DNA from: Acutalibacteraceae bacterium
GTDB taxonomy: Bacteria; Actinomycetota; Coriobacteriia; Coriobacteriales; QAMH01
DNA length: 64,000 bases
Assembly (NCBI GenBank): GCA_963606965.1
Contig: CAVDAL010000032.1
Coordinates: forward strand, 25-64,024
Direction: 5' to 3'
The position numbers were made by a program, and so were the translations under genes. Shown here piece after piece: positions 10,625 to 59,859 of the stretch (within the stretch, counting starts at the first letter, position 1; the number at the start of each line of letters is the position of its first letter). Under the pieces are notes generated by a model. The model made no database searches. It was not told the DNA's origin and worked only from the letters and a program-made list of their open reading frames with translations.

Positions 10625-11443
10625 TTATTTTTTCTTTGAAGCATGCGCTGCATACATTATGCTTGCAACAAGTATGCCCCCAATAATATTTCCAATTGTT
10701 ACAGGAATAAGGTTATTGATAATAAAACTTCCAAAATTCAAAACTGCTGTATTTATTCCAGCTTCAGCAATCATGCCTGCAAATGCAGAATTCATATTCG
10801 CAAAAATTCCAGCAGGGATGTAATACATATTTGCAACGCTATGTTCAAAGCCTGCAATAACAAATCCAAAGATTGGCAAGAACAAACCCATAATGCGTCC
10901 GGCTGTGTCATGCGCAGTGCTTCCTAAATAAACAGCTATGCAAACCAAGATGTTGCAGAACACGCCAAGTGCTAAAGCCTTTCCCCAGCTCAATGATGCT
11001 TTTGAGGCTGCTACTTTTGCAGTATATACAGCAAGTGCTCCGCCACCGATATCAAGCTGACCCAAAAAAGCCATGCATGCTGCTAAAGCAATAGCGCCAA
11101 CAAAATTGCCAACATATACAAGTCCCCAATTTCTTAAGAGCTTGCCTACTGTAATTTCTTTTGCATATACAGCAGAAATCATTAAGCAATTTCCTGTGAA
11201 AAGTTCTGTTCCAAGCAAAACAACCATAACCAAGCCAATAGGAAAGATTGCTCCGCTTACAAAGCGCACCATTCCAACATCGCTTAATGCATGCGCTGCA
11301 GTAGAAGATGCAACTGCGCCAAATCCAATTAAAACACCTGCAGCAATTCCCAAAACAAAAAGCTTCCACGCTGGAGCATTCGCTTTAGATATACTCGATT
11401 TTATGTAGTTGTCTGTGATTTCTGTAGGGCTGTTATAAGCCAT
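10625..11443 (-). CDS. formate/nitrite transporter (FNT) family channel
   Basis: Six-TM FNT layout with FLPIFGFVIAGFEHSVANMYYIP (the FNT central His region). SD GGAGGAACC precedes the ATG at 11443 (MAYNSPTEI...). Confidence 0.85.
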   Translation of the reverse strand: MAYNSPTEITDNYIKSSISKANAPAWKLFVLGIAAGVLIGFGAVASSTAAHALSDVGMVRFVSGAIFPIGLVMVVLLGTELFTGNCLMISAVYAKEITVGKLLRNWGLVYVGNFVGAIALAACMAFLGQLDIGGGALAVYTAKVAASKASLSWGKALALGVFCNILVCIAVYLGSTAHDTAGRIMGLFLPIFGFVIAGFEHSVANMYYIPAGIFANMNSAFAGMIAEAGINTAVLNFGSFIINNLIPVTIGNIIGGILVASIMYAAHASKKK

Positions 11444-11600
11444 GGTTCCTCCTAAGCTCATTCACACATTTGTGAATATCCATTATGTCTTGTGGATATT
11501 TATAAGGCATTGCAAGTTCAAGTTCTAATATGGCGTGGCATTGAACTTGGCATTCGTATTTGAATAATCTATAAGGCGCTTGCTTGCGTTTTGGCGCATG

Positions 11601-12314
11601 CTATTCAGAAATAATATCGCGTATAACTTTGGAAGCTATCATTTGACCCATGATTGCAGGGTAATATGAAATTGTTCCAATGTTTGCTCTGGCTTTGCGC
11701 GTGTTGTTATCTGCCGGAATGACAAGAGGCTCTTCAGGCGAATAGATGACCTGCATTTTTTCAAGCCCGCACTTTCTGGCATGCTTGCGAACAGCTTTAC
11801 ACATTCTGCATGTGTGAGTTTCATAGATATCTGCAAATTGCAACATTTGCGGGTCGAGCTTGTTCCCAGACCCAAGCGCGGCAATATAAGGAATTTCTAA
11901 GCTTTCAGCGCGCATTGCAAGAGCAACTTTTGTTGTGACAAGGTCTGCTGTGTCAACAATATAGTTTGGAACAAAATCCATCTTGCTGAAAAATTCATCA
12001 ATATTGTCAGGTAGCAGTTGCATAGAGATGCATTGAACTTTCGCGTCTGGGTTTATTTCTTTGATAATCGCAGACATCACTTCAAGCTTGCTTTTTCCAA
12101 TAGTGCTATTGAATGCAAGAGCTTGTCTATTTATGTTACTTTCGGAAACAATATCATAATCAACAAGGATAAATGCACCAATACCTGCGCGCGCCAAGCT
12201 TTCAACACAGTTGCTCCCGACGCCACCAATGCCAACCACTGAAACGCACGAATTAGCCAGTTCGCTAATTCCATGTTCGCCAATAAGGATTTTTGTTCGT
12301 TCATTAAAAGACAT
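11601..12314 (-). CDS. tcdA: tRNA threonylcarbamoyladenosine dehydratase (ThiF/E1-like)
   Basis: VSVVGIGGVGSNCVESLARAGIG..LVDYD..SNINRQ nucleotide-binding block plus the C-terminal CRMCKAVRKHARK segment typical of TcdA/CsdL. The likely start is the internal ATG at 12314 (MSFNERTK...). Confidence 0.7.
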   Translation of the reverse strand: MSFNERTKILIGEHGISELANSCVSVVGIGGVGSNCVESLARAGIGAFILVDYDIVSESNINRQALAFNSTIGKSKLEVMSAIIKEINPDAKVQCISMQLLPDNIDEFFSKMDFVPNYIVDTADLVTTKVALAMRAESLEIPYIAALGSGNKLDPQMLQFADIYETHTCRMCKAVRKHARKCGLEKMQVIYSPEEPLVIPADNNTRKARANIGTISYYPAIMGQMIASKVIRDIISE

Positions 12315-12459
12315 GGGAGTATTATATCCTATGGCTTGGGTGGGTGTTGCGCCGTCAGCACTTTGCTTATTTGTATTCGCGGAATTACATATTTTCAAGT
12401 CGGTAGTTTGCGTTACACTACTATAAGACATATGCCAATAGGAGTGAGGGGAAAGTTCC

Positions 12460-13341
12460 ATGGCTATAGGCACTAGTGGAAAACAAAGTATAAAAGAGAG
12501 GATAGCAACGCGTAATGCTGCAAGAAATGCAAAGCGCGATGCTGTGAATCAACATTATGCTGAAGTTGCAAATAATGTTCGCGCAATCACTCAAGATGAA
12601 AATCAATCATGTTCATCTGCATCTTCCTGCTCATGCAAAGATGCTAGAAGGCTTTATCCTGAACAGGTTATAGATGGAGTTCCTCAAGCAGCACTTCTTG
12701 CTTCTCGTGGCTGTGGCAATCCTTTTGACAGAACATGTTTAAAGGAAGGCGACACTGTTTTAGACCTTGGCTGTGGCGGCGGCATTGATGTTTTGTTAGC
12801 TGCACAAAAGGTTGGGGAAAGTGGTCATGTCACTGGCGTAGACATGACAGAAGAAATGCTTCAAATAGCCAGGGAAAATCAAGCCCTTACTAACATTACA
12901 AACGTTGACTTTGTTCAAGGATATCTTGAACATCTTCCATTTGATGATAATTCATTTGATTGCGTAATTTCTAATTGTGTTATAAATCTTTGTGAAGATA
13001 AAAGCAAAGTTCTGGCTGAAGCCTTGCGCGTTTTAAAGCCACTTGGCTGCTTTGTTGTTGCAGATATTGCTTTTGATTCTGCATATTATCAAGCACAAAG
13101 TGTGGATTCTGCTGCTGCAATCTTGGGCTGCACTTCTGGCGTTTTGGACATTCAGCAGTACAGAGGAATTTTAAACCAACTTGGTTTCTTAAGTTCAAAT
13201 ATTGAAATTTATAGGCGCTATCCTTATGAAACTTTGCAAGAAAAGGCACAGCAAAAAGGAATGCAGCAAGACTTAGCAGCATATTCTCCGCAATATATCG
13301 ATAATGCTTTTTGCGGTGTTTATGTTACAGCTTATAAATAA
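12460..13341 (+). CDS. arsM: ArsM-family SAM-dependent (arsenite-type) methyltransferase
   Basis: SAM motif VLDLGCGGGID plus the ArsM-specific Cys contexts: CSC near the N-terminus, SRGCGNP, ISNCVINL and ILGCTSG. SD GAGGGGA precedes the ATG. Confidence 0.7.
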   Translation: MAIGTSGKQSIKERIATRNAARNAKRDAVNQHYAEVANNVRAITQDENQSCSSASSCSCKDARRLYPEQVIDGVPQAALLASRGCGNPFDRTCLKEGDTVLDLGCGGGIDVLLAAQKVGESGHVTGVDMTEEMLQIARENQALTNITNVDFVQGYLEHLPFDDNSFDCVISNCVINLCEDKSKVLAEALRVLKPLGCFVVADIAFDSAYYQAQSVDSAAAILGCTSGVLDIQQYRGILNQLGFLSSNIEIYRRYPYETLQEKAQQKGMQQDLAAYSPQYIDNAFCGVYVTAYK

Positions 13342-14344: not shown

Positions 14345-16507
14345 TTATCTGTCCCAATAAAGTTTTGAACAAAGTGAAACACTTGTAAGCAAAGCTTCAA
14401 TATCTTCAAGCGTTGTATGCACAGCAATGCTTGCACGTCCTGTGCCAATTGTACCAAAAGCGCCTGAAAGAGGAATTGCACAATGCGAACCTGCGCGAAT
14501 TGCAACGCCGCGATTCCCGCAGAAAGCTGCAAGCTGCGGCGGCGTGACGCCATCAAGTGAAAATGAAACAAGTCCATTTTGTCCATCAGCTTTTGAATGG
14601 TCGCCCCAAATTGTAATTCCCCAGATTTTCTTTAGCCCAGCAACAAGTGCTTTTGTCATTGCAACTTTGTGGTTTTGGCGTTCGCCTTCATCTAAGCTTT
14701 CAAGATAGTCGATTGCGCCACCCAAAGCTATAGCTTGTGAAATTGCAGGTGTGCCTGTTTCATATTGAATTGCGCCAAGTCTCAAATAGTAAGAGTCAAG
14801 CGACACATGAGAAATTACACCTCCGCCCAATGCAAGCGGGTCCATTTCTTCAAATGCATCTGGGTGAATCCACAAGCCACCAATCCCAAATGGTGCATAC
14901 ATTTTGTGCCCTGAAAATGCAATAAAATCAGCACCTGTTTTATAAACATCAATTTTTTGATGCGGCATTGATTGCGCAGCATCCAGCACAAATCTAGCTC
15001 CGCACTCATGTGCCATCTTTGCCATCTTTTCAACTGGCGCTTTAATTCCTGTGACATTTGAAATATGTGCAATGCAAACAAGCTTTGGCTTTTGTTCAAG
15101 AAGCTTTTCATAAGCTTCCATGTCAAGTCTGCAATCAGTTGTTAGCGGCAGGGCTTCCAATCTTGCACCCTTGCGTTGTGCCAAAGCAAGCCATGGCAAA
15201 TAATTTGAATGATGCTCAGCAATTGTGCTGATAATCAAGTCACCTTCAGAAATATTATGTTCGCCCCATGCTAAAGCAACAAGATTTAGCGAATCACTTG
15301 TATTCTTTGTATATACAGTTTCACGCCTGGAAGCGCCAATATAATCTTCCAACTTCGCTCTGGCATCATTTAGCATAGCCGTTGCTTTTGCAGAAAGCTC
15401 ATAAGCACCTCTATAAACATTTGCATTTTCATGCTTGTCAAAATTTTCCTGTGCTTGCAAAGCTTGGAAGCAACGCTGGCTTGTAGCAGCAGAGTCTAAA
15501 AATGCTAAGCTGTCTTTGTTTTTTGTATCCAGCAAAATGGGGAAGTTTTTGACTTGGCTTTTTCCAAAAGCATCCGCATCTGTTAGCTTTTTGCGCAAAG
15601 GCATAGGGAATGCTTTGTTTAAGGATGAAATAACATCTTTAGCTGCGTCGATAAGCTGCATATCAGCATTGTTATAGTTTTCTTTCTTGTGCTTTTTGCC
15701 TATGCTAAGCTTCATTTGTTCATGCGCAATACGCACAGCTTCACGCGCGCTCAAAGTGCATTCTTTTTCAAAGTCTTCAACGCGCTTGCAAGCTGGCAAA
15801 TTTGAGTCAAGGCGTTCTTCACCAAAATTATGATCCTTAATTTTGAGCATTGGAAGAATGCGCTCTTTTGGTGTCATTTCATAGATGGAATTTTCAAGCA
15901 AATCGCGCGAAACCAGAAGCGGAGTGTGGCGTGTCCATGCAATCCAAGATGTAACGCAATCAAGACTTGTATCATTGCGAAAATCTTGGCAAACTTCAAT
16001 TATGTGAGCAGGCGTCAACCTGACCTGGTCGCATGAAAGCAAGATAATTGAATCAATATCCGGATCATCTTCAATTTCTTCAAAAGCTATATCAAAAATC
16101 CCTTTTGTGAAACTGAACAAATCGAAAAAGCCAGATTCTTTGCTAGCTTTAGCATCCTTTTTGGAGTCATATCTAATTACGGAAGCATCATGTGCTAACT
16201 TTTTTGGCAACCTTAAATCTGGAGCTGCAATAATGTCAACGGATGCAAATTCGCACTGGCAAGCGCATTCATAAGATTGTTCAATCAAAGTCTTTTTCTG
16301 CCACACTTGCAAAGGTCTTGAGGCTTCTTTGCAAAGCTTTGGATCTTTACCAGGAATATCAGATTGCACTTTCAATGGAGTTGTGCCCATATTGTTTGCA
16401 AGAATGAATGCAGCTGTTCTTCCGCATGCTGCTTTCAACTCGTTTTTGCTTGGATTTTCCCGCTTAGGAATTTCCATGCTTGGTTGGTGCAACTTTCGAT
16501 CTTCCAT
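14345..16507 (-). CDS. fusion protein: unassigned ~340-aa N-terminal domain (possibly a degenerate MobA/MocA-like fold) plus a SufS/CsdA-type cysteine desulfurase
   Basis: C-terminal half carries LDSAATSQ, ANVYRGAYELS, AEHHSNYLPW, the PLP lysine in FSGHKMYAPFGIGGLW, ETGTP, and the active-site Cys in RAGSHCA. N-terminal half contains AAFILANNMGTTPLKV and IILLSCDQVRLTPAHI. SD AGAGGAG precedes the ATG at 16507. Confidence 0.75.
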   Translation of the reverse strand: MEDRKLHQPSMEIPKRENPSKNELKAACGRTAAFILANNMGTTPLKVQSDIPGKDPKLCKEASRPLQVWQKKTLIEQSYECACQCEFASVDIIAAPDLRLPKKLAHDASVIRYDSKKDAKASKESGFFDLFSFTKGIFDIAFEEIEDDPDIDSIILLSCDQVRLTPAHIIEVCQDFRNDTSLDCVTSWIAWTRHTPLLVSRDLLENSIYEMTPKERILPMLKIKDHNFGEERLDSNLPACKRVEDFEKECTLSAREAVRIAHEQMKLSIGKKHKKENYNNADMQLIDAAKDVISSLNKAFPMPLRKKLTDADAFGKSQVKNFPILLDTKNKDSLAFLDSAATSQRCFQALQAQENFDKHENANVYRGAYELSAKATAMLNDARAKLEDYIGASRRETVYTKNTSDSLNLVALAWGEHNISEGDLIISTIAEHHSNYLPWLALAQRKGARLEALPLTTDCRLDMEAYEKLLEQKPKLVCIAHISNVTGIKAPVEKMAKMAHECGARFVLDAAQSMPHQKIDVYKTGADFIAFSGHKMYAPFGIGGLWIHPDAFEEMDPLALGGGVISHVSLDSYYLRLGAIQYETGTPAISQAIALGGAIDYLESLDEGERQNHKVAMTKALVAGLKKIWGITIWGDHSKADGQNGLVSFSLDGVTPPQLAAFCGNRGVAIRAGSHCAIPLSGAFGTIGTGRASIAVHTTLEDIEALLTSVSLCSKLYWDR

Positions 16508-16560
16508 AAAAATCTCCTCTTATATGACTTGCCGCCTTTTGCACATAATGCAAATAGTAT

Positions 16561-16603
16561 ATAAAAAATGACAGATTCTTGAGGCCTGATCCAAGAATCT
16601 GTC
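16561..16603 (-). terminator. intrinsic terminator inside the 5' leader of the fusion/rSAM operon (attenuator or riboswitch expression platform)
   Basis: Perfect 12-bp stem GACAGATTCTTG / CAAGAATCTGTC (16570-16581 with 16592-16603) and a 10-nt loop. On the minus strand it is followed by ATTTTTTAT. It lies 54 nt upstream of the ATG at 16507 and before the SD. Confidence 0.55.
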
Positions 16604-16701
16604 AAGTCATCCTTCTTCTTTCATCTTTAAAATAATTGCCCATTTGTTCGGACAAATGCAAAGAAATAATACTTTTGCTGCCTGTGCTTCGACCGTTTAA
16701 C

Positions 16702-16731
16702 AGTATAAGACAATGTCAAATAAAAGCGCAA
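16702..16731 (-). promoter_or_regulatory. candidate promoter for the attenuated leader
   Basis: Minus strand TTGCGC (16731-16726), 18 nt, TATACT (16707-16702). This would give a leader of about 190 nt. Confidence 0.3.
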
Positions 16732-16792
16732 GTCCATACTTTGGCGAAAAATACTTGCATTCTTGCATATACTTTAGTTATTCTGTTAGTGG

Positions 16793-16810
16793 TTAGCGAC
16801 TAATAGCTAA
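16793..16810. promoter_or_regulatory. inverted repeat TTAGC-N8-GCTAA (candidate operator) in the divergent control region
   Basis: TTAGCGACTAATAGCTAA at 16793-16810, preceded by further TTAG copies (16774-16777, 16786-16789). About 55-70 nt upstream of the rSAM paralog 2 start. Confidence 0.3.
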
Positions 16811-16864
16811 AGTTACTATATGTTAAATAAAATAAAGAATTGTTAACTCGGGGAGATGTTTTTT

Positions 16865-17878
16865 ATGCAGAAGTTAACACCAAAAGTTGTTGAGCTTTTA
16901 GAAAAAGCTGAAGAAGGCAATGGCCTTGAATTTGACGAGATGGAATATCTTTATGGTCTTGACCCAACATCGCGCGATGCATGGCTTGTGCGTTGGGTTG
17001 CACATCAAATGTCTCTTGAAGCTACAAATGGTAAAGCTGAAATTCATGCACAAATTGGTTTGAATGGCAGCCCTTGTGGCAAAAATTGCAAGTTCTGCAG
17101 CTTTGCCGTTTGCAATGGTTTAACAAAAGAAAAAGTGGAACTTGATGTTGAAGATGTTAAAGCTTATTGCGATGCATATATGGAAGAAGGCGCAAACCTG
17201 ATTCTTATGCTAACAACAGCATCTTATAAGTTTGAAAAAATTCTTGAAATGGGGCAGGTCGCACGCGAAATTATTGGCAAAGACATGCCTCTTTTGGTAA
17301 ATACAGCAGACATGACGCTTGAACAAACAAAGCAAATTAAGGCTGCTGGCTTTAATGGCGCATATCATGCAATTCGCATGCGTGAAGGCGAAGATACAGA
17401 AATTCCAGTAGAAGAAAGACTTAATACAATTAAGAATTTGCAAGCGGCAGGCTTGTCAATTTCAACATGTGTTGAACCTGTCGGTCCAGAAGCAAGCGCA
17501 CATGAAATTGCAGAAGCTTCTGCACTTTGCATGAGCTATCCAAACAATTCTGCTGGCGTTGGCAGAAGAATTACTGTTCCTGGCACAATGGTTGAACCAC
17601 GCGGGCAGATTAGCGACCTTGTTGCTTCTTTATATGTTGCTGTCTATGGCCTTACAACTGGTTTCAAACCAGCTCTTAACTGTTCTGTTTGCTCACCACT
17701 TTCTGCTGTATCTGGCGGCAACTTAACTTGGGCGGAAGTCGGTTCTAACCCACGCGACGCTGTTGAACGCACAGAAAATGGCGGACGCGGTGCAAGCATT
17801 GAACGCTGCCGCAGCGAATATGAAAAGGCTGGCTGGGAAGTTTTAGAAGGACCTTCACAGGGCTGGATTCTAGATTAG
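16865..17878 (+). CDS. radical SAM protein, BioB/HydE-like class (paralog 2), function unknown
   Basis: CGKNCKFC (CxxxCxxC) preceded by HAQIGL, with blocks shared with 13346-14326. SD GGGGAG is correctly spaced for the ATG at 16865, whereas the track start at 16856 abuts the SD. Confidence 0.75.
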   Translation: MQKLTPKVVELLEKAEEGNGLEFDEMEYLYGLDPTSRDAWLVRWVAHQMSLEATNGKAEIHAQIGLNGSPCGKNCKFCSFAVCNGLTKEKVELDVEDVKAYCDAYMEEGANLILMLTTASYKFEKILEMGQVAREIIGKDMPLLVNTADMTLEQTKQIKAAGFNGAYHAIRMREGEDTEIPVEERLNTIKNLQAAGLSISTCVEPVGPEASAHEIAEASALCMSYPNNSAGVGRRITVPGTMVEPRGQISDLVASLYVAVYGLTTGFKPALNCSVCSPLSAVSGGNLTWAEVGSNPRDAVERTENGGRGASIERCRSEYEKAGWEVLEGPSQGWILD

Positions 17879-17887
17879 TAATTAACA

Positions 17888-17931
17888 AAATGAAATAAGA
17901 AGTGTGGGGGCGCTTCTTCTTTTCATTTTTT
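17888..17931 (+). terminator. probable rho-independent terminator (or partial terminator) after rSAM paralog 2
   Basis: AAATGAAA-T-AAGAAG / CTTCTT-CT-TTTCATTT bipartite stem (8+6 bp) with loop TGTGGGGGCG. The 3' arm runs into TTTTT. Confidence 0.5.
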
Positions 17932-17971
17932 AGGGCCTTTTGACAGCTTCAATTTGGGAGGAAATTAAAAA

Positions 17972-18982
17972 GTGGCAAAGAAGGATACTAGTGTAGAAAA
18001 AGCGATACGCACTACACGCAGGGCAAAAGATTATGTGAAGATGCTTTTGCCTATTGCTGGCGTTTTAATTGCGTTGGCAGAATGGTATGGCACAGATATC
18101 GTATACCCTTTGACATATACAGGAACTGTTAATCCAATTTGGTTTTCAACATTTTTAAAGGTTTATGGAATCATTTATATAATCTTTTATTTGATTTCAA
18201 TTTTTAGCGGCTCTATTCGTTATCATCTTGTGAAATGGGCATGGCTTTTATTTATGGTTCCATTCCTTTTATGTATTTGGGACTTAACAACTTTGAAATC
18301 TGGCATCTTTAAGTTGCCATTTACTCCAGGTCCAGACAAGATTCTTTCAATTGTTCCATTGAATTGGCAAGACTTAATTTATCACTTGTGGGAATCTATG
18401 AAGTTGCTCTTCACAGGCGTGTTCATTGGTCTTGTAACAGGTTTTGTTTCCGGATTGCTTATTGGCTGGTCACACTTCTTTGATTATTGGATTTCTCCTT
18501 TAATGAAGATTATTGGCCCTGTTCCATCAGCAGCATGGCTTCCAATTGCTGTTGCAATCATGCCATCGTCACGCGCAGCTGGCTTGCTCTTGATTGCAAT
18601 TGCTGTTTGGTTCCCGCTTACTTTGATGCTTTCATCAGAATTAAAATCAACAGACATTCGTAAGATTGAAGCAGCACGTGTTCTTGGTGCAAGCGAAAGA
18701 TATATTTTGTTCAAAGTTGCTTTGCCATCTGCATTGCCTGGAATTTTTAACGGCTTATTCATGGGCTTGTCATCGTCATTCGGCGCTTTGGTTATCGCTG
18801 AACAGCTTGGCGTTAAAGCAGGTCTTGGTTGGTATATCAACTGGGCTGCATCATGGGCAGAATATGCAAAAGTATTCGCAACAGTCGGCATCTTCATTAT
18901 AATTTTCTATGTTTTGACAACATTGCTCTTTAAGTTGCGCGACGGAATTATGAAGTGGCAAGAGGGTACGGTGAAGTGGTAA
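17972..18982 (+). CDS. ABC transporter permease, NitT/TauT (SsuC/ThiX-like) family
   Basis: EAA-loop region IEAARVLGASERYILFKVALPSALPGI and multiple TM helices. GTG start is preceded by GGGAGG. Confidence 0.8.
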   Translation: MAKKDTSVEKAIRTTRRAKDYVKMLLPIAGVLIALAEWYGTDIVYPLTYTGTVNPIWFSTFLKVYGIIYIIFYLISIFSGSIRYHLVKWAWLLFMVPFLLCIWDLTTLKSGIFKLPFTPGPDKILSIVPLNWQDLIYHLWESMKLLFTGVFIGLVTGFVSGLLIGWSHFFDYWISPLMKIIGPVPSAAWLPIAVAIMPSSRAAGLLLIAIAVWFPLTLMLSSELKSTDIRKIEAARVLGASERYILFKVALPSALPGIFNGLFMGLSSSFGALVIAEQLGVKAGLGWYINWAASWAEYAKVFATVGIFIIIFYVLTTLLFKLRDGIMKWQEGTVKW

Positions 18983-19848
18983 TGGCTTTGAAGAAAGATA
19001 CAAGTCGCAGTGTGCAAGAAACAAAAGAAATTGCATCAGAACAAATGCTTGATGAAAATTTAGCAAAAGAAACTTTATTGCGACATGAAAATCATATATT
19101 GAAATCTGTTGGCATTCGACAGGTCTTTAATGAAGAAGAAGAAAATGAAGTCATAGCTTTGGAAGGCGTTGACTTAGAAATTAGTGGCGATGACATCGTT
19201 GGTTTAATTGGTCCTTCTGGCTGTGGTAAGTCGACATTTTTGCGCATTGCTGCTGGCTTGGATAAGCCAACAAGTGGCGAAATCACATTTGATGGTGAAC
19301 CTATCAAAGGCCCAGATTGGCATCGTGGCGTTGTATTTCAAGGCGCACAGCTTTTTGAATTTTTGACTGTTTATGGCAATGTTGCATTTGGTTTGAAAGC
19401 TCGTGGAGTTTATAAAGGTAATGAAGATAAAGTTGACGAATTTTTAAAGCTTGTTGGCTTGGAACAGTTTGCTCATTCTTACCCGCATCAAATTTCTGGC
19501 GGCATGGCTGCTCGTGTTGCAATTGCAAGAACTTTAATTCAGCAGCCTGGCCTTGTTTTGATGGATGAGCCGCTTTCTGCTTTGGATGCGTTCACACGTG
19601 GCACGATTCAAGATGAAATTATCAAGCTTTTAAAGACGTCAAACACTCTTTCAATGCTTGTTACACATGATATTGAAGAGGCTGTTTATATGTGCGACAG
19701 AGTTTTGGTTATGTCGCCACGTCCTGGTCGCGTTGTTGCGGATATCAAAATCGATCTTGAACATCCACGCGACAGGATTTCGCCTGAATTTGTTGAATAC
19801 AGGCGTCAAGTGCTCGATGCATTAAATGATGCACATGCACTTGATTAA
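18982..19848 (+). CDS. ABC transporter ATP-binding protein, NitT/TauT family
   Basis: Walker A GPSGCGKST, signature ISGGMAARV, Walker B LVLMDEPLSALD. TAATG start/stop overlap with the permease gene; the track start at 18955 is probably too long. Confidence 0.85.
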   Translation: MALKKDTSRSVQETKEIASEQMLDENLAKETLLRHENHILKSVGIRQVFNEEEENEVIALEGVDLEISGDDIVGLIGPSGCGKSTFLRIAAGLDKPTSGEITFDGEPIKGPDWHRGVVFQGAQLFEFLTVYGNVAFGLKARGVYKGNEDKVDEFLKLVGLEQFAHSYPHQISGGMAARVAIARTLIQQPGLVLMDEPLSALDAFTRGTIQDEIIKLLKTSNTLSMLVTHDIEEAVYMCDRVLVMSPRPGRVVADIKIDLEHPRDRISPEFVEYRRQVLDALNDAHALD

Positions 19849-19917
19849 TTTTGGTTTCGACCTGGTTAAGATGGTCAGGTGAAATAATACTCAATTTTTC
19901 TACATGGGAGGTTTTTT

Positions 19918-20961
19918 ATGAGTATTACAAGAAGGAAATTTATTGGTGCTGCGGCAGCAGCAGGTGCTCTTGCAGCAAGTGGCGCAGCAGTAAGTGGCTG
20001 CGGCAGCGAAGAGACAACTTCAACAGAAGTTGACAAGGTTGTTGTTGGCTACTGGGGTGGCACTTGCGAAGCTCCTATCTTTATTGCTAAAGAAAAGGGC
20101 TACTTTGAAGAAGAAGGTCTTGAAGCAGAAGTTACTTTGCTCGACTCTGATGGTGGCATTTCTTCAGAATCAGGCGTTGCTAATGGTGAACTTGACTGCT
20201 ATGAATTGACACCTGATAAGTTCAAGCCAATTGAACAAGGCTCACCAATGAAGGTTATCGATTCTCTTCACATTGGCTGCATCCAAGCTTGCGCTTCAAA
20301 AAAGAGTGGCATTACATCTGTTAAGGATCTTGAAGGCAAAAAGGTTGCTGCTTCACAGGGCAGCATTGCTCACATCATGTTGGCAAACCAGATGATCTTG
20401 GAAGGTGCTGACCCAACTAAGGTTGAATGGCTCACTTATAAAAACCCAATGATGGAAGCTGCAATTGATGCTGGCGAAGTTGACGCTATGGCTTGCTATG
20501 ACCCATATGTTGACATTGCTGTAAAGAATGGCAAGAAGCGCTTCTGGTCATGGACATATGATGAAGGCGTTAATGAAATCCTTTGCTGCTTCGTTGGCTG
20601 CAGTCAGTTGACATTTGAAAATAAACCAAATGCTCCTAAGAAACTTGCTGCTGCTTTCAAGAAGGCAACACAGTTCTTGGAAGAAAATCCAGAAGAAGCT
20701 GCACAAATTATCATTGATGGTGGCTATGTTAAACTCAATGATGACTCAGGCTTCACGAAGGATATCATGGTTACTGAAATTAAGGATTATCAATGGTTAT
20801 CTGGTGACAAAGATGTATTCGACAAGTCATATAAATACATTTGGGAAGCTATCTGGCGTGCTGGCGCTCTTGATGATTATGATTTCAAGACTGTTGAAGA
20901 AGTTGACGAATGGTGCATGGGCGATATGTACACTCAAATGTGTGAATATTGCGGTGAATAA
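19918..20961 (+). CDS. ABC substrate-binding lipoprotein, NMT1/THI5-like (SsuA/ThiY-like)
   Basis: Tat-like lipoprotein signal MSITRRKFIGAAAAAGALAASGAAVSGC, then a periplasmic-binding fold of the NitT/TauT type. SD GGGAGG upstream. Confidence 0.75.
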   Translation: MSITRRKFIGAAAAAGALAASGAAVSGCGSEETTSTEVDKVVVGYWGGTCEAPIFIAKEKGYFEEEGLEAEVTLLDSDGGISSESGVANGELDCYELTPDKFKPIEQGSPMKVIDSLHIGCIQACASKKSGITSVKDLEGKKVAASQGSIAHIMLANQMILEGADPTKVEWLTYKNPMMEAAIDAGEVDAMACYDPYVDIAVKNGKKRFWSWTYDEGVNEILCCFVGCSQLTFENKPNAPKKLAAAFKKATQFLEENPEEAAQIIIDGGYVKLNDDSGFTKDIMVTEIKDYQWLSGDKDVFDKSYKYIWEAIWRAGALDDYDFKTVEEVDEWCMGDMYTQMCEYCGE

Positions 20962-20992
20962 TTCTCGATTTTTAAAAGGATTGATGATTTAA

Positions 20993-21439
20993 ATGAAATC
21001 TTCGCTTTGGAAAACTGTTTCAATACTTACATGTGTTCTTGCTATCGCTGCTTTGATTGTATGCATCGCCATGGGCGGTTGCAGCAAGCAGCTTGAAACA
21101 ACTGCAGGTGGAGTTTGCTACATGAAATGTTATTGGTGCTTTAGAGCATCTACTATTGTTTTAGGTTTAACAATTATTGCTTCTTTTGCTCAAATTTTTA
21201 AGAAAGAAGCTGATACGCGCCGTGTTTGCGCTGTGTTTACGGGGCTTGGCGCTGTGGGCACAATCGCAATGAATGCAACATCTATTGTTGGCATTTGCGT
21301 GGGCGCTGCAGAAGCTGGAATGCATTGCTTCACAACTGCATTGGTGGTTGATATCATTTGCGCAGTTATAATAATTCTGGCTTTTGTTGCAATTTTTGGT
21401 TCAAAGCCAAAATCTAATAAACCAAAAATGACTTTGTAA
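20993..21439 (+). CDS. Cys-rich small membrane protein, DUF4418-like
   Basis: 148 aa, four hydrophobic helices, conserved-looking Cys contexts (GGCSK, CYMKCYWC, MHCF). Position upstream of an FtsX/MacB ABC pair is as commonly seen for DUF4418. Family assignment is from memory. Confidence 0.45.
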   Translation: MKSSLWKTVSILTCVLAIAALIVCIAMGGCSKQLETTAGGVCYMKCYWCFRASTIVLGLTIIASFAQIFKKEADTRRVCAVFTGLGAVGTIAMNATSIVGICVGAAEAGMHCFTTALVVDIICAVIIILAFVAIFGSKPKSNKPKMTL

Positions 21440-21469
21440 CATTAATATTTGTCTGTAAAAGGAACCTTC

Positions 21470-22684
21470 ATGAAAGAACTCATTTTTAGCAGTTTAAAGA
21501 AGCGTAAAATTCAGACGATTTCGGTTGTGCTTGTGGTTGCCGCAAGCACAACCCTTCTTTTTTCTCTGCTCTTAATTTATAGTGGTGTGTCTTCAGGTGT
21601 GACACTTTCAAAAGAACGCGGTGGTGCAGAACTTATGCTTTTGCCAGCCGACGCAGATGAATCAATATCAGATAACACTTTGCTATTTACTGGTTCTCCT
21701 ACACCTGTTTATATGAATTCTGATGTCTTGGAAAAGGCAGCAAAAATTGATGGAGTTGCAAAGGTTGCTCCGCAATTTTTCTCGCAAACAATAGAAGCAA
21801 GCTGCTGCACAACTGGCAGTGAAACAAGAGTTATTGGCTTTGACCCGAAAAGCGATTGGGTAGTCCAGCCATTGACTGATTGTGATCTTTCTAATGGTCT
21901 TGCTGAAGACGAAGTGCTTGTTGGCGCACGAATGTCTGATTATGGCGGAGACACCATTAGTATGCTTGGAAAAGAGTACAAGATTGCTGGATATCTTGCA
22001 GAAACAGGTTCTGATATTGACCTATCATTAATGGTTGATATTGAAACTGCACGTCAGATGTCTAGGGAGATTGTTGGCTATGATCATTATTGGGAAAAAT
22101 ATGGTGACCCAGACACGCTTGTTTCAAGCGTTTTGATAGATGTAGATGACAGCCTGTCTGAAACTGAACAAACTATGGTTTTGCGTAAATTGAGCAATAT
22201 CGATGGCGTTAGAGTTTTGGAAAGAAGCAGTGTTATTGATAGTTCGCAAGAATCTTTATCAAGTGTTTTTGCTGTGATGTTTGCAGCTGGAATTTTGATG
22301 CTTATTGTTTGTATTTTGCAATTGTTCTCGCGCTATTACTCTTGCGTGTGGGAACGCAAATCAGAACTTGCTTTATATAGAGCTGTTGGAGCTACGCAAA
22401 AGCAGCTTTCAGGCTTGATAGGCGGGGAAGCAGCAATATTGAGTGGTGCCGGAATTGTGATAGGCCTTGTGCTTGGCGTAATACTTTATTTTGCTGGTCA
22501 AGCATGGCTTTCTAGCATGGAATCATTCCCATTTGTTGCACCATCAATTCTGATTTCAATAGCTTTTGGAGCTGGCGTGGTTGTGCTGCTAGCACTTGTG
22601 ACCTTGCTTTCTATCATTGCTCCGTTAAGACAACTTAATCGCATTGACCCTTCGCTTGCTATGCAGCAAAGTGATATCGATTAA
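21470..22684 (+). CDS. ABC transporter permease, FtsX/MacB type
   Basis: N-terminal TM helix, large extracytoplasmic domain, C-terminal FtsX 3-TM bundle (ELALYRAVGATQKQL...). SD AAAGGAA precedes the ATG at 21470. Confidence 0.75.
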   Translation: MKELIFSSLKKRKIQTISVVLVVAASTTLLFSLLLIYSGVSSGVTLSKERGGAELMLLPADADESISDNTLLFTGSPTPVYMNSDVLEKAAKIDGVAKVAPQFFSQTIEASCCTTGSETRVIGFDPKSDWVVQPLTDCDLSNGLAEDEVLVGARMSDYGGDTISMLGKEYKIAGYLAETGSDIDLSLMVDIETARQMSREIVGYDHYWEKYGDPDTLVSSVLIDVDDSLSETEQTMVLRKLSNIDGVRVLERSSVIDSSQESLSSVFAVMFAAGILMLIVCILQLFSRYYSCVWERKSELALYRAVGATQKQLSGLIGGEAAILSGAGIVIGLVLGVILYFAGQAWLSSMESFPFVAPSILISIAFGAGVVVLLALVTLLSIIAPLRQLNRIDPSLAMQQSDID

Positions 22685-22699
22685 GGGAAGGAGCAAATA

Positions 22700-23371
22700 A
22701 TGGCTGAAGAAACTGTATTAAAAGTTGAACATATTTCAAAATCTTTTGGTGAAACAACAATTTTAAAAGATGTAAACTTCACGCTTGACCGCGGCGAGTC
22801 AATTTCAATAACAAGCCCGTCAGGCTCTGGCAAGTCTACAATTCTTTCTATTGTTGGTTTGTTGCTTGCTCCGGACTCTGGTCAAATTATCATCAATGGC
22901 AAAGAAGCTATTGGTTTAGATGATGATGAACTTTCGCAATTGCGTCGCCAAGCATTTGGCTTTGTCTTTCAACATACTCAATTGATTGGTTCTTTGCGTG
23001 CTTATGAAAATGCAGCTGTGCCAGCAAGATTTGATGGAAATCAAGATGCAAATGCAGATGAAAAAGCAAAAGAGCTTCTTGTTGCATTAGGTTTGGAAGA
23101 GCGTCTTGAACATTATCCGCATCAATTAAGTGTTGGGCAAAAGCGCCGCGTTGCTGTTGCTCGTGCGTTATTACTTAATCCGCAAATCATTCTTGCAGAT
23201 GAGCCAACAAATGACTTGGATGCAGGTTCAGCAAATTCTGTTGCAGAAATGCTTTTTGAACAACCAAAGAATGGCAAGTCGCTTATTCTTGTTACGCATG
23301 ATGTACAGCTTGCTGAAAAGACAGACCATCAATATCATTTGACAGATGGTAAGCTTGAGCAAATTCGATAA
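22700..23371 (+). CDS. ABC transporter ATP-binding protein (LolD/MacB-ATPase-like)
   Basis: Walker A SPSGSGKST, signature LSVGQKRRVAVARAL, Walker B IILADEPTNDLD. Confidence 0.85.
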   Translation: MAEETVLKVEHISKSFGETTILKDVNFTLDRGESISITSPSGSGKSTILSIVGLLLAPDSGQIIINGKEAIGLDDDELSQLRRQAFGFVFQHTQLIGSLRAYENAAVPARFDGNQDANADEKAKELLVALGLEERLEHYPHQLSVGQKRRVAVARALLLNPQIILADEPTNDLDAGSANSVAEMLFEQPKNGKSLILVTHDVQLAEKTDHQYHLTDGKLEQIR

Positions 23372-23445: not shown

Positions 23446-24513
23446 TTAAAAACAAGTATCCAAACAGAATTCAAGATAGTCTTTGCTTAAATAAATTTTA
23501 AGCTTATTAAATGTCTTTTCATTTTTAAGCTGCCGCGCACAGGTATGATATTCCACCCAAGCATTGCAGCTCCATGTTATTCCGCGCAAGCAATTTGAAC
23601 TTACATATGCGCCGAAGCGTTCTTCAAAATTGCCCGTGTCGAAACGACTGCCAACATGCTTCCAGTAATCTTCAACAAAATTTTCGCGTTCTTTTTGTTT
23701 GAAGATATATTCGCTGTCCCAAATTGTTGTTGTAGGCGACAAATAATAAGCAATATCTTGTGCGACTTCTGCGATTATTGGCTTTTCCCAGTCAACCATT
23801 TTGCCCTGCTTGATATTGCCATTTTCATCATGCTGAATAATGAAGTGTGAAGGAACAGCTTCTGTATTGATGATATGCGATGCATCTTCTTCAACAAAAC
23901 GGCTATTGTTTAGCTTTTGCTTTGTTTGCTTAATCATCTGCTGTGCGCGCTTCATTACCATATCATCTGCAAGCGCAGACTTTTCATATGCTTTAAAAAA
24001 GCCCATGCATTCATTGAATTGGTCCTGCAATGGGTCGCCCGGTTTTAGTATTCCATGCGCCGGAGGGCAAACAGAATGAATATCTGCAAGGATGTGTGCA
24101 CATTCTGTAACATCTTGCGGTTTTTCAAAATCCATCCATTCGCCTTGCAAGAATTCTTGAACCAAAATGCCTTTATCAAGAAGTTTGCAAGAATTATCAA
24201 CATATATCGGCAATGCTGTTCTGCAACTTTTATAAAGAGCTTTTAAAGCGTTATATTCATATTCAATTTGATTATCAAGATTAAGCTGACTTGAAAAATT
24301 AATTCTAAAGACATATTTTTGTTCAAAGAGCAAGCCTTTGTTTGCAGTAATCAAAAAGTTCATATTATGTTCGCCTTGAGCAAGCATTTCGCATGTGAAA
24401 GAATCTTTATCTTCCAAATTCAAAGCTTTTTGGAGCTCGGCATTGCTGCTGATATATCTTCGTATTTCTTCACATTGCATCTGTTTAGCACACTTTCTCT
24501 TCAGTATTTGCAC
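23446..24513 (-). CDS. phosphotransferase-family (APH/choline-kinase-like) protein
   Basis: Kinase-like layout with LAQGEHNMNF near the N-terminus and ...IIQHDENGNIKQGKMVDWEKPIIAEVAQDIAYYL (the H.D..N ... DWE ... D motif region). Start is either GTG 24513 or ATG 24480. Confidence 0.5.
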   Translation of the reverse strand: MQILKRKCAKQMQCEEIRRYISSNAELQKALNLEDKDSFTCEMLAQGEHNMNFLITANKGLLFEQKYVFRINFSSQLNLDNQIEYEYNALKALYKSCRTALPIYVDNSCKLLDKGILVQEFLQGEWMDFEKPQDVTECAHILADIHSVCPPAHGILKPGDPLQDQFNECMGFFKAYEKSALADDMVMKRAQQMIKQTKQKLNNSRFVEEDASHIINTEAVPSHFIIQHDENGNIKQGKMVDWEKPIIAEVAQDIAYYLSPTTTIWDSEYIFKQKERENFVEDYWKHVGSRFDTGNFEERFGAYVSSNCLRGITWSCNAWVEYHTCARQLKNEKTFNKLKIYLSKDYLEFCLDTCF

Positions 24514-31588: not shown

Positions 31589-31658
31589 CGCCGAGTTGTA
31601 AATTACATAAATCCTATGAAGCAGGTTGAATTCTTTTGAAAACAGTCTGTGGAGGAAC

Positions 31659-31739
31659 CTCTGGAGAACCTCACAAAATGTGAGTACCGAAGGTGCAAGG
31701 CTTGGAAACAAGCTGAAACTCTCAGGTAAAAGGACAGAG
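31659..31739 (+). promoter_or_regulatory. glycine riboswitch, single aptamer
   Basis: CUCUGGAGAAcc...GUACCGAAGGUGCAAgg...ACUCUCAGGUAAAAGGACAGAG matches the conserved glycine-aptamer blocks (CUCUGGAGAG / ACCGAAGGGGCAA / CUCAGGCAAAAGGAC). P1 is CUCUG/CAGAG. Only one ACCGAAGG core is present. The downstream gene is a sodium:alanine/glycine symporter, a classic regulon member. Confidence 0.8.
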
Positions 31740-31776
31740 CAAACATAGACTTACATGTCGTGCTTGCAAATTCTCC

Positions 31777-33271: not shown

Positions 33272-33301
33272 AAAGCGCCGCATTTTTTGCGGCGCTTTTT
33301 T
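33272..33301. terminator. bidirectional terminator between agcS and the convergent SufS-like gene
   Basis: AAAGCGCCGC / GCGGCGCTTT 10-bp stem flanked by an A-run and a T-run. Confidence 0.7.
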
Positions 33302-35054
33302 AATTTTTGCAAATTGATATTAAAACATTCAAGAACTTATCAATGTCTTCAAAACTGTTATAGCATGCAATAGATGCACGAACTGTTGAATCAAAACCAA
33401 GAGAATTAAGATATGGTTGCGCGCAGTGACGCCCAGAGCGTACTGCAATTCCATAGCTGTCTAGAATTTGTGCGCATTTATATGAAGACATGCCATCTAC
33501 AACAAAAGATATGGCTCCAATGCGTTCAGAACTTCTGCCAAATATTTTAATTTTTGGAATTTCTTCTAATCCCGATTGAATTTTATCCATAAGTTTTTGC
33601 TCATGATTTATGCGTGAATCTTCATCTATTAAAGTCCAAAAATTAATTGCAGCAGCAAGAGAAATTGCACCGTCAATAGGGGGAGTTCCAGGCTCGAACC
33701 GTTCAATTCCATTGCGCAAGATAAATGAACTTGTTGTGACATTTTCAACAGTTCCTCCTCCAAAAGTGCATGGCTGAAGTGTTTTTAAAAGCTCACTTTT
33801 AACCCAAAGTGCTCCAACTCCTGCAAGAGAACCAAGCTTGTGACCAGAAAATGCATACATATCACAATCAAGCTCTTTTGGCTTGTGACATGCATGGACT
33901 GCCCCTTGCGCTCCATCTATGATAATTATTGCATCTGATTTCTTCCTGGCTATGCTTGTGAGTTTCTGGTGTGGTATAGAGATTCCAGAAACATTTGAAA
34001 GCTGTGTAAATGAAAGAATGGCTGTGTTTTCGTCAATGATTTCATTAGCACTTTCTATGTTTAAAGTTCCATCTTCAAGCACTGGGATTATGCGAAGTTC
34101 ACAAGATTTTTCTTTAGCTAAATTCATCCAAGGAAGCAAATTTGAATGATGTTCCATTTCAGTTATGACAATATTTGATTTTTTGCCAAGTTTATTGCTT
34201 AGCATCCTTGCAGCTTTATTAAGCCCGTCGCTTGTGCCATAAGTAAAGATGAGTTCTTCTGCTTTAACATCTAAAAATTTTGCAACTTGCATTCTTGCTG
34301 AATCAAAAGCATCTGAACAAAGCTGAGACAATTTGTGTGTGCCTCTGTGGACATTTGAATAATTGCCTTGGCGCAGTTTGGTAATGCTTTGAATAACTTT
34401 TTGCGGCATCTGCATGCTGGCAGCATTATCCAAATAAACAAGACTGTGCCCATTAATTTCTTGCTGGAAAGCGCGAAATTGCAAGCGCAAAGCTTCATAA
34501 TCAAAGCATGATAAATTTTGTTTTTTGGAAGCGGCGACCTTATCTTGTGGGCTTTCATTGTGCATCACTGCAACTGCACAATTTTTGCCTGTACATTTTT
34601 TGATTGCTTCTATTAAGACATCAGCTAATTCGCTAATATTTTCCGCAAGGGCTGCCTTCATTGTGTCAAGCTTCACATTAAAATCGTTTTGAATCGCCAT
34701 CATCAGCAGAGCTTGTTTTGTATCAAGCGTACTTGCTCCATCACAAGTGGCAGAACGCAAAGATTCTTTAGCTAATTTTGGGTTTAATTTAAAAGCTTTA
34801 TCAATGCTTTTTTGTGTCAATTTGTCAAAGTCACAATTGCATTTTAATGTGTCGGCAAGTTCCAAAAGGTCAAATTTTGCGAGTATATAAAGCTTTAATT
34901 GCTCATCTATATAATCTTTTGAATAATTGTTCGACTGCACATTCTTAAGTATATTATTTGTGCAAGCAGAGGCTACTGACTCTCGCTTTTCAGTAGCCTC
35001 ATTTTTTATTTGCGTTGCCTGTTTCATAAGTGAAAATGTAGAAAATTTATGCAA
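33300..35054 (-). CDS. SufS/CsdA-type cysteine desulfurase with a ~185-aa N-terminal extension (carrier-protein-like helical segment)
   Basis: YLDNAASMQ, SNVHRGTHKLS, MEHHSNLLPW, PLP lysine in FSGHKLGSLAGVGALW, FEPGTPP, active-site RSGRHCAQP. The N-terminal extension contains CDGASTLDTKQALLMMAIQNDF. 8-nt overlap with the upstream gene. Confidence 0.75.
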   Translation of the reverse strand: MHKFSTFSLMKQATQIKNEATEKRESVASACTNNILKNVQSNNYSKDYIDEQLKLYILAKFDLLELADTLKCNCDFDKLTQKSIDKAFKLNPKLAKESLRSATCDGASTLDTKQALLMMAIQNDFNVKLDTMKAALAENISELADVLIEAIKKCTGKNCAVAVMHNESPQDKVAASKKQNLSCFDYEALRLQFRAFQQEINGHSLVYLDNAASMQMPQKVIQSITKLRQGNYSNVHRGTHKLSQLCSDAFDSARMQVAKFLDVKAEELIFTYGTSDGLNKAARMLSNKLGKKSNIVITEMEHHSNLLPWMNLAKEKSCELRIIPVLEDGTLNIESANEIIDENTAILSFTQLSNVSGISIPHQKLTSIARKKSDAIIIIDGAQGAVHACHKPKELDCDMYAFSGHKLGSLAGVGALWVKSELLKTLQPCTFGGGTVENVTTSSFILRNGIERFEPGTPPIDGAISLAAAINFWTLIDEDSRINHEQKLMDKIQSGLEEIPKIKIFGRSSERIGAISFVVDGMSSYKCAQILDSYGIAVRSGRHCAQPYLNSLGFDSTVRASIACYNSFEDIDKFLNVLISICKN

Positions 35055-36570: not shown

Positions 36571-36691
36571 CTTTTCCCCTTTATTCGATATTCGAACTGG
36601 CATTTTGCCAAAACATTAGCTGAATTGTATGAAGGCCAAATTTCTATTACAATGTTAAACTGCACAAGGAAATAAGAAAAAGGACAGCAAA

Positions 36692-55853: not shown

Positions 55854-56014
55854 CACATCTATCAACAAATTTTATGTGAGCTTATATCAGTTCTGTAATA
55901 TGCTATGTCGGTTATTCTTTTCATGCGCATACATATAGCAAAGCTTTGACTTGCTGTTATGTGCATGAATGGCAAAGTTGAGCACAAAACTAATAGCTTA
56001 TATAGATGGGAAGT

Positions 56015-57088: not shown

Positions 57089-57091
57089 AAA

Positions 57092-58573: not shown

Positions 58574-58629
58574 ATTTTGTACTTTTGATTTTGAAATTGC
58601 GAGTACATGAATGGAGGAAAGCTTAAAAC

Positions 58630-59856: not shown

Positions 59857-59859
59857 ATT

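Follow-up and report, generated by a model that had tools for sequence, protein, structure and literature searches.

A predicted MobA-fold/cysteine desulfurase fusion protein and its candidate metalloid-processing gene island in Eggerthellaceae

We analysed a 64,000-nucleotide stretch of contig CAVDAL010000032.1 (GenBank assembly GCA_963606965.1, labelled Acutalibacteraceae bacterium and placed by GTDB in the Coriobacteriia), hereafter the window. It encodes a 720-residue protein that joins a predicted MobA/MocA-type domain to a SufS-type cysteine desulfurase domain. Genes of this family lie beside genes for ArsM-like methyltransferases, are in some members fused to them, and are linked to genes for radical S-adenosylmethionine (SAM) enzymes and transport modules, a gene set that we call the cassette. 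The reading that we favour, tentatively and on the strength of sequence and gene order, is that the fusion would be the sulfur-mobilising enzyme of an island that processes a metalloid, most likely arsenic.

Domain composition of the fusion protein

The fusion gene (positions 14345-16507, minus strand) is an uninterrupted open reading frame (ORF) of 720 codons with an ATG start, as given by the ORF listing and its translation, and a Shine-Dalgarno sequence, AAGAGGAG, lies 6 nt 5′ of that ATG; the plus-strand translation of the same interval has stops throughout (Table 1). Independent metagenome contigs carry the identical protein type, among them locus L001 (99.4% identity across 9.9 kb), and the fusion is therefore not an assembly chimera. 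The window protein falls in a 6-member cluster at 90% identity, which takes in the metagenome-assembled genome GCA_964548785.1. All motifs quoted in the initial annotation are found in the translation: EHHSNYLPW at residue 431, SGHKMYAP at 532, RAGSHCA at 671, AAFILANNMGTTPLKV at 32-47 and SIILLSCDQVRLTPAHIIEV at 153-172.

Table 1. Positions of the fusion gene, its parts and the neighbouring genes in the window
Feature	Positions	Strand	Basis
Whole fusion gene, 720 aa (predicted MobA-fold N-terminal domain, helical linker, SufS domain)	14345..16507	-	ORF translation; homologues of 700-844 aa, 99-100% coverage
Predicted MobA/MocA-fold domain, residues ~20-235	15803..16450	-	Pfam NTP_transf_3, AlphaFold2, Foldseek
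Helical extension/linker, residues ~236-319 (LSAREAV helix and others)	15551..15802	-	AlphaFold2 helices 241-249, 254-266, 280-299
Predicted type II (SufS/CsdA-like) cysteine desulfurase domain, residues 320-716	14360..15550	-	Pfam, NCBIfam and PDB matches
Codon of pyridoxal 5′-phosphate Lys535	14903-14905	-	SGHKMYAP motif at 532
Codon of catalytic Cys676	14480-14482	-	RAGSHCA motif at 671
Strong terminator-like hairpin (stem of 14 bp and a TTTTTT run), ~60 nt 5′ of the fusion ATG, candidate attenuator	16569..16604	-	Leader sequence
rSAM1, BioB-like radical-SAM protein, 326 aa, CX3CX2C C69/C73/C76	13346..14326	-	Radical_SAM weak, bioB 5.3e-18
ArsM-like SAM methyltransferase, 293 aa, C51, C85 (GCGNP), C173 (SNCVINL), C224	12460..13341	+	NCBIfam, PDB
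rSAM2, BioB/ThiH-like radical-SAM protein, 340 aa, extra conserved Cys 205, 225, 276	16856..17878	+	Pfam/NCBIfam/PDB
Importer permease (NitT/TauT, SsuA/NMT1-type ATP-binding cassette (ABC) transporter)	17972-18982	+	Pfam/NCBIfam
Importer ATPase	18955-19848	+	Pfam/NCBIfam
Importer binding protein, twin-arginine-signal (Tat) lipoprotein, 12 Cys	19918-20961	+	Pfam/NCBIfam
DUF4418 small Cys/His-rich membrane protein	20993-21439	+	Pfam
MacB/FtsX permease, putative exporter module	21449-22684	+	Pfam
ABC ATPase of the exporter module	22700-23371	+	Pfam
ThiF/TcdA-like E1-type adenylyltransferase	11601-12473	-	NCBIfam best match TcdA/CsdL, 120 vs cutoff 304
FNT formate/nitrite/hydrosulfide-type channel	10625-11461	-	Pfam/NCBIfam

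The C-terminal half of the protein is predicted to be a catalytically complete type II cysteine desulfurase. Specifically, residues 336-706 match Pfam Aminotran_5 (PF00266) with E=1.2e-107, and a search of the Protein Data Bank (PDB) returns SufS/CsdB structures at E=1e-88 to 1e-75, the best being Synechocystis SufS (1t3i, E=4.7e-88). The C-terminal 400 residues have the same Aminotran_5 fold as SufS/CsdA enzymes (1t3i; B. subtilis 5xt5; E. coli CsdB 1jf9) and share with them the pyridoxal 5′-phosphate (PLP) lysine (SGHK), the His-His acid/base pair (EHHSN) and the cysteine in R-x-G-x-H-C-A. Cys676 is invariant in an alignment of 144 family members, and conservation there is at least 95% for His432/His433, Lys535 and Arg671. 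The SufS/CsdA hallmarks recognised in the initial annotation are thus borne out by the Pfam, NCBIfam and PDB matches and by every catalytic residue. The cysteine loop itself reads RAGSHCA in the window protein and RSGGHCA in the family consensus, as against RSGHHCA in SufS/CsdA, and the NCBIfam sufS model TIGR01979 gives 411.5 bits, under its cutoff of 475.1; the SufS/CsdA equivalog models are also below cutoff.

The N-terminal domain is predicted, by profile matches and a structural model, to have a MobA/MocA-type (NTP_transf_3, GT-A) fold. The Pfam NTP_transf_3 profile (PF12804) scores the window protein at 20.5-22.8 bits against a gathering threshold of 27 (E=1.1e-4 to 5.6e-4); the relative P0001 exceeds the gathering score at 34.1 bits, and 24 of 25 family N-terminal domains match at E<=0.01, the best at 1.6e-12. 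An AlphaFold2 model of the domain, made from a 25-sequence alignment, has a predicted local distance difference test score (pLDDT) of 89.4 and a predicted template-modelling score (pTM) of 0.82. In a Foldseek search with this domain, MobA/MocA-type structures top the list (Rv0371c 2we9/2yes, Sulfolobus 3d5n, E. coli MobA 1e5k/1h4d), followed by KdsB, IspD, TarI and GlmU, with E-values of 1e-7 to 1e-5 and target-normalised TM scores of 0.6-0.74. The nearest NCBIfam subfamilies are PucB (8 of 25 domains, best 1.5e-5) and MocA/YgfJ (5 of 25). The initial annotation had guessed at such a fold and had named the same cytidylyltransferase group of the molybdenum cofactor (Moco); the family matches, the model and the structural search all agree with that guess.

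The residue mapping shows how far the domain has moved from its relatives. The two segments singled out earlier correspond to the LAGGxxxRMG and CDxP blocks of MobA/MocA, and, as had been remarked, the Gly and Arg residues of the nucleoside triphosphate (NTP) loop are lost: LANNMGTTPL stands in their place in the window protein, and LA.D.GTTPL in the family consensus. To judge from this replacement, canonical NTP binding has very probably been lost, and since the Gly-rich loop is what grips the triphosphate, the domain probably no longer transfers nucleotides. By comparison with E. coli MobA, Arg64 (PRPLQ) presumably falls at MobA Lys25 and Asp160 (SCDQVR) at the Mg-binding Asp101, a mapping that we take as a lead; Asp160 of the CDxP-type block is kept in 116 of the 144 aligned members (81%). 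The highest conservation in the domain lies instead in family-specific residues, namely HQP 7-9, C28, H168 (99%), S187-W188 (98%), P196 (100%) and FGEE 228-231 (97%), and A254, A257 and D282 are conserved in the linker. In common with MobA, MocA (YgfJ) and PucB, the domain has the GT-A-type fold, the CDxP-type Asp and the 'K/R-P-L..x-G-K-P' strand-helix. Unlike them, it has no Gly-rich loop, has Arg for Lys25, carries a beta-hairpin inserted at 45-59 as well as a C-terminal FGEE segment and helical extension, and has no Moco genes nearby, differences that make nucleotidyl transfer doubtful.

Cysteine desulfurases normally pass sulfur to separate acceptor proteins, and SufS normally needs a SufE or SufU partner. 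Unlike SufS/CsdA, the fusion adds the N-terminal MobA-fold domain and helical linker (~320 residues) and adjoins ArsM-like and radical-SAM genes; no SufE, SufU or sufBCD gene was found in the 64-kb window, and neither these nor CsdE turned up among the neighbours at 8-24 kb or in those related loci for which Pfam calls were made. An ordinary housekeeping desulfurase for iron-sulfur (Fe-S) clusters, with an inert or regulatory N-terminal extension, would suit the 40-45% identity of the SufS domain to canonical SufS enzymes. That explanation is nonetheless scarcely probable at all, given the sub-cutoff SufS family score, the lack of adjacent sufBCD, sufU or sufE, the well-folded model of the N-terminal domain with its own conserved residues (H168, SW187-188, P196, FGEE) and the conserved linkage and fusion with ArsM and radical-SAM genes. 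The cargo desulfurase of family 2A encapsulins is likewise SufS-type with a long N-terminal extension, and its model NF041166 aligns to the desulfurase part of the fusion, but with a score of 348 against a cutoff of 800. The extension of the encapsulin cargo is a disordered targeting region, unlike the folded N-terminal domain modelled here (pLDDT 89), and no encapsulin shell gene was found among the neighbours of the fusion gene.

The kinship with PucB and MocA raises another explanation, namely a bacterial Moco sulfurase or selenium-delivery enzyme in which the MocA/PucB-like domain would hold a molybdopterin (di)nucleotide while the SufS domain installs a sulfido or selenido ligand. MOCOS/ABA3, XdhC with NifS4, and FdhD with IscS would be analogues. 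The best NCBIfam relatives of the domain and its top structural match, the MocA-type protein Rv0371c, fit this explanation, as does an oxidoreductase of the bis-molybdopterin guanine dinucleotide (bis-MGD) type that lies ~5 kb from the cassette in loci L063/L064, the only Mo-related gene in the related loci with Pfam calls. In addition, a separate MobA-like/ArsM-like pair of families (models DVU_1551, DVU_1556) takes its name from a locus adjacent to DVU_1559, a Mo-MCD aldehyde oxidoreductase, which is a lead only; no literature on the DVU_1551/DVU_1556 genes was found. Against it, Pfam and NCBIfam searches of the window found no selD, yqeB/yqeC, xdh-family, XdhC, MOSC or moa/moe/mog gene, and none of these was found across the 35 related loci that all our neighbourhood counts cover, where most loci without partner genes are short contigs. 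The NTP/phosphate loop of the domain is lost, and a Moco role explains neither the ArsM fusion nor the radical-SAM paralogues. Eggerthellaceae are rich in bis-MGD enzymes, so the single adjacency in L063/L064 is weak. We regard a Moco role as decidedly unlikely, and it keeps some weight because PucB and MocA are the closest relatives and because of the DVU_1559-adjacent pair.

These absences also bear on two parallels drawn in the initial annotation. The comparison with eukaryotic Moco sulfurase finds no support, with neither a MOSC match nor Moco genes, and the partners are an ArsM-type methyltransferase and BioB-like radical-SAM enzymes; the likeness to the YgfJ and selenocysteine-lyase genes of selenium-dependent molybdenum hydroxylase loci is left unsupported by the absence of selD, yqeB/yqeC and xdh from the window and the sampled loci. 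What MOCOS/ABA3/HMCS and the fusion do have in common is a desulfurase covalently joined to a ligand-binding domain that could take the persulfide. MOCOS has its NifS-like domain at the N-terminus, joined to a MOSC-type domain that has no kinship with MobA; in the fusion the order is reversed, the partner is NTP_transf_3 and there is no molybdoenzyme context.

Distribution and conserved neighbours

An exhaustive HMMER search of 1.84 billion representatives with a profile of the N-terminal domain returned 61 proteins, and every full-length protein among them (705-848 aa) has this fusion architecture. At 90% identity, a full-length search (E<1e-100) gave at least 163 clusters; almost all are of 700-844 aa, and most have precomputed PF12804 and PF00266 matches. 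The only source name in the family is 'aminotransferase class V-fold PLP-dependent enzyme [Eggerthellaceae]', and all organism-labelled members are Eggerthellaceae/Coriobacteriia. The initial annotation had allowed for a common, already annotated SufS variant; the family found here is rare, taxonomically narrow and generically annotated. Neither fold is new, and Pfam already shows the pair of domains in public databases, but in the literature searched we found no description of the architecture, the family or the cassette. No stand-alone protein of the N-terminal domain was found, the short matches all being contig-end fragments or frameshifted translations. Among these sequences, P0001 (contig L002) is frameshifted, with the N-terminal domain in one frame and the SufS domain in another; its gene call reads through the frameshift, which gives the database protein a spurious Arg/Pro-rich tail.

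We further scanned GTDB species genomes with a degenerate DNA pattern over WI.W.R..P...FGEE and sorted the matches by tblastn, which left ~24 true loci and ~30 chance matches. Every true locus has a high GC content (55-69%). Their sources are Ellagibacter, Eggerthellaceae or Coriobacteriia, and one of them is a cultured and experimentally tractable strain, Ellagibacter isourolithinifaciens DSM 104140. In that strain (L024, 4318-6810, minus strand) a single 831-aa ORF apparently comprises a partial MobA-like domain, SufS and a fused ArsM-like domain; of the MobA-like domain just the C-terminal portion is kept, by a real truncation or a frameshift. Four high-GC (57-69%) cassette contigs stand under Ruthenibacterium, Akkermansia muciniphila, Agathobacter rectalis and Oscillibacter records (L007, L008, L019, L042), labels that probably reflect bin contamination and not true hosts.

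A conserved neighbour is an ArsM-like methyltransferase. Its gene lies just beyond rSAM1 in the window, convergent with it, and is adjacent to the fusion gene in 21/35 loci. Furthermore, an ArsM-like domain is fused to the C-terminus of the desulfurase in at least five members (P0007, P0011, P0020, P0140, P0156), apparently as well in the L024 gene, and the window methyltransferase is 41-42% identical to the C-terminal extension of P0007/P0011/P0020. The enzyme aligns to the PDB ArsM structure 5evj with E=4.2e-28 and with its Cys motifs in register; among cassette methyltransferases, C85 and C173 are present in 12/12, and C224 and C51/52 in 10/12. ArsS (TIGR04167) scores above its cutoff of 300 in L068 and L070 (376 and 321 bits) and was detected by tblastn in L015. 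An arsenosugar-associated AhpD-like protein (TIGR04169) scores 172 against a cutoff of 120. Both lie inside or beside the cassette in L015, L068 and L070, and in L015 they take the slot of the window's rSAM2.

Locus L070 holds further genes at 15491-20962. An ArsM-ArsS fusion (683 aa), a CobW-like GTPase and a TupA-like oxyanion-binding protein lie there, 3′ of the desulfurase fusion and of a second importer. With them is a DUF5714 protein similar to the 'MbdU metal-binding double selenoprotein' family.

Two radical-SAM genes flank the fusion gene. rSAM1 starts 19 nt 3′ of it and is probably co-transcribed with it; its only PDB matches are biotin synthases, and orthologues of 45-52% identity lie beside fusion or methyltransferase genes in 7 loci. 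rSAM2 is divergent from the fusion gene and is the first gene of the importer operon; orthologues of 46-58% identity hold the same position in 9 independent loci, and the orthogroup has 3-4 conserved Cys beyond CX3CX2C. Altogether, BioB-like radical-SAM genes are present in 22/35 loci, with one to five paralogues. An identity with ArsL, the arsinothricin enzyme, was discarded, there being no NCBIfam match and ArsL belonging to a different, non-canonical class. Elsewhere in the window (56006-63425, plus strand), hydE, hydG and hydF accompany genes for a GltD-like NAD(P)-binding protein and a group A6 [FeFe] hydrogenase; with these canonical genes present, the BioB-like genes are not the organism's H-cluster maturases.

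These enzymes could instead serve organic sulfur insertion with no metalloid involved: the BioB-like proteins would sulfurate an imported precursor, the SufS fusion would rebuild their sacrificial clusters and the methyltransferase would cap a thiol, the product being a methylthio metabolite or cofactor. Biotin synthases are the only solved or curated relatives of the radical-SAM partners, the 3-4 extra conserved Cys of the rSAM2 type could hold an auxiliary cluster, the desulfurase and radical-SAM genes are tightly linked, and the importer belongs to the sulfonate/taurine family. Nevertheless, the BioB likeness is remote, with E-values of 5e-18 to 5e-6 and scores well under the cutoffs, the full ArsM set of metalloid-binding Cys is kept although a thiol S-methyltransferase would not need it, and ArsS and its AhpD-like partner sit in the cassette of three loci. 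We consider this explanation somewhat unlikely.

Downstream of rSAM2 lie an importer and a putative exporter module, and both recur in the longer loci. The importer adjoins the cassette in L015, L038, L050, L063, L068 and L070, and its binding protein has Cys motifs conserved among orthologues (WGG..CE, H.GC, CCF). The trio of DUF4418, MacB/FtsX and ATPase genes flanks the cassette in L063/L064 and L068, and DUF4418, whose MKCHW and MHC motifs are conserved, also occurs in L024 and L070. Conserved Cys are unusual for extracytoplasmic proteins, and those of the binding protein and DUF4418 suggest a thiophilic ligand. Gene order in L063 and L068 is nearly that of the window.

Selenium is another element that the cassette might handle, with a SufS domain that is chiefly a selenocysteine lyase and an ArsM-like enzyme that methylates the released selenide for detoxification, volatilisation or delivery to a selenium-dependent process. 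Type II desulfurases such as E. coli CsdB/SufS (1jf9, 1i29) were first described as selenocysteine lyases, and several neighbours come from families with selenoprotein members (ArsS '(seleno)protein', MbdU-like, CobW-related and the SaoP/SaoA/SaoX-like importer). That resemblance is below threshold, however, no selD or selenocysteine-insertion genes lie nearby, no in-frame UGA is required in the cassette genes examined, and no sequence feature separates a selenocysteine from a cysteine preference. Selenium handling is accordingly very unlikely in our judgement.

A possible route for arsenic and sulfur

The metalloid-island reading is the most economical for the set of observations as a whole: the fusion to and adjacency of ArsM, the radical-SAM linkage including ArsS in some genomes, the import and export modules, and the obligate fusion of a complete desulfurase with a loop-less MobA fold. 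In this scheme the SufS-type domain would take sulfur from L-cysteine with PLP bound at Lys535 and carry it as a persulfide on Cys676. The N-terminal domain may be a built-in ligand-binding or acceptor/adaptor module that replaces SufE/SufU, or a pocket for a nucleoside-type ligand. The island would import a thiophilic substrate through the Cys-rich ABC binding protein, process it with the ArsM-type methyltransferase and the radical-SAM enzymes (BioB-like, and ArsS in some genomes), and export the product through the MacB/DUF4418 module. As for the persulfide, its sulfur may be placed onto a (methyl)arsenical or may serve to build or repair Fe-S or auxiliary sites in the radical-SAM partners.

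A close described counterpart is the organoarsenical system of ArsM, ArsS, TIGR04169 and TIGR04282. Both it and the cassette have an ArsM-type methyltransferase with the full Cys set, and the system includes a CofC/MobA-fold protein (TIGR04282, by its NCBIfam naming), to which the predicted MobA fold of the fusion has a marginal match. The system as described has no cysteine desulfurase, and the fusion supplies one; unlike the system, the window is without ArsS, and the main radical enzymes of the cassette are BioB-like paralogues. ArsS is an established C-As bond-forming enzyme that acts on the trivalent dimethylarsenical DMAs(III) (PMC13598754).

Several observations weigh against arsenic as the substrate. 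The window methyltransferase scores 246 bits with the NCBIfam arsenite methyltransferase model, just under the cutoff of 263, and Se, Te, Sb or thiols are other possible substrates for enzymes of the ArsM-like kind. Pfam, NCBIfam and tblastn found no ArsS, arsR, arsB/acr3 or arsC in the window, and ArsS stands beside the fusion in 3/35 loci only. The arsenosugar model TIGR04282 matches 2/25 N-terminal domains, at E=0.03, and the closest relatives are the Moco-related PucB and MocA. Furthermore, some family members lie beside a major facilitator superfamily (MFS) transporter only (L066).

Human colon microbiota methylate and thiolate arsenic, and no enzyme has been assigned (PMC2920899). It is quite unlikely, though conceivable, that the fusion is the missing enzyme for biological arsenic thiolation, which would pass the persulfide directly to a methyl- or adenosyl-arsenical bound by the fused or adjacent ArsM-type partner and by the MobA-fold domain, with the BioB-like enzymes as a new class that forms C-As (or C-S) bonds. 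In that event, a MobA fold without its phosphate loop would be well fitted to a nucleoside arsenical, for example 5′-deoxy-5′-dimethylarsinoyl-adenosine (DDMAA), the product of ArsS.

Further features of the window and implications

The 5′ leader of the fusion gene may have a regulatory role. No minus-strand gene lies 5′ of the terminator-like hairpin that the hairpin could terminate, and the 253-nt leader (16508-16760, minus strand) folds better than 200/200 shuffles (z=-3.2). A search of the leader against Rfam gave no family match, only noise. From these features, the hairpin is a possible attenuator or orphan riboswitch; it is not conserved in the high-GC relatives, and its membership in the cassette is thus uncertain.

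On the other side of the methyltransferase, the ThiF-like and FNT genes adjoin the cassette in the window genome only and are absent from the other 33 loci, which makes their membership doubtful. The GTG called as the start of the ThiF gene is probably wrong, for it gives a 14-nt overlap with the start of the methyltransferase gene. A type II desulfurase ~2 kb from a TcdA-like ThiF gene recalls the E. coli CsdA-CsdE-TcdA (CsdL) system; unlike there, the TcdA score is far below cutoff, CsdE is lacking and the ThiF-like gene does not recur in other loci. An APH-family phosphotransferase gene lies at the opposite edge of the cassette (23446-24513, minus strand), and one lies directly 5′ of the fusion gene in L070 (8030-9112).

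The interval 33300-36603 (minus strand) includes the gene of a second N-terminally extended SufS-like protein, of 584 aa, with Aminotran_5 at residues 206-574. It is 32% identical to the desulfurase domain of the fusion, and its ~200-aa N-terminus is unrelated to the MobA fold. Its ORF overlaps by 8 nt the end of an upstream 518-aa ORF without a Pfam or NCBIfam match, and a divergent PucR-type regulator lies beside it at 36692-37975. In addition, a glycine riboswitch (31651-31747, plus strand, 58 bits) lies 5′ of a gene of the sodium:alanine symporter family.

The joining of a desulfurase to a nucleotide-binding fold, sometimes together with an arsenic-type methyltransferase, would represent an undescribed route of sulfur transfer in Eggerthellaceae, gut bacteria noted for the unusual chemistry that they perform on xenobiotics. 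Should the fusion thiolate arsenicals, its products would be As-S compounds like those that gut microbiota make. Arsenic thiolation and methylation change the toxicity of arsenic, and, if arsenic is the substrate, the cassette would give a genetic handle on both processes, which have been measured in human colon cultures. Even if the substrate is not arsenic, the family would present a MobA/MocA fold recruited away from Moco chemistry, together with an uncharacterised set of BioB-like radical-SAM enzymes.

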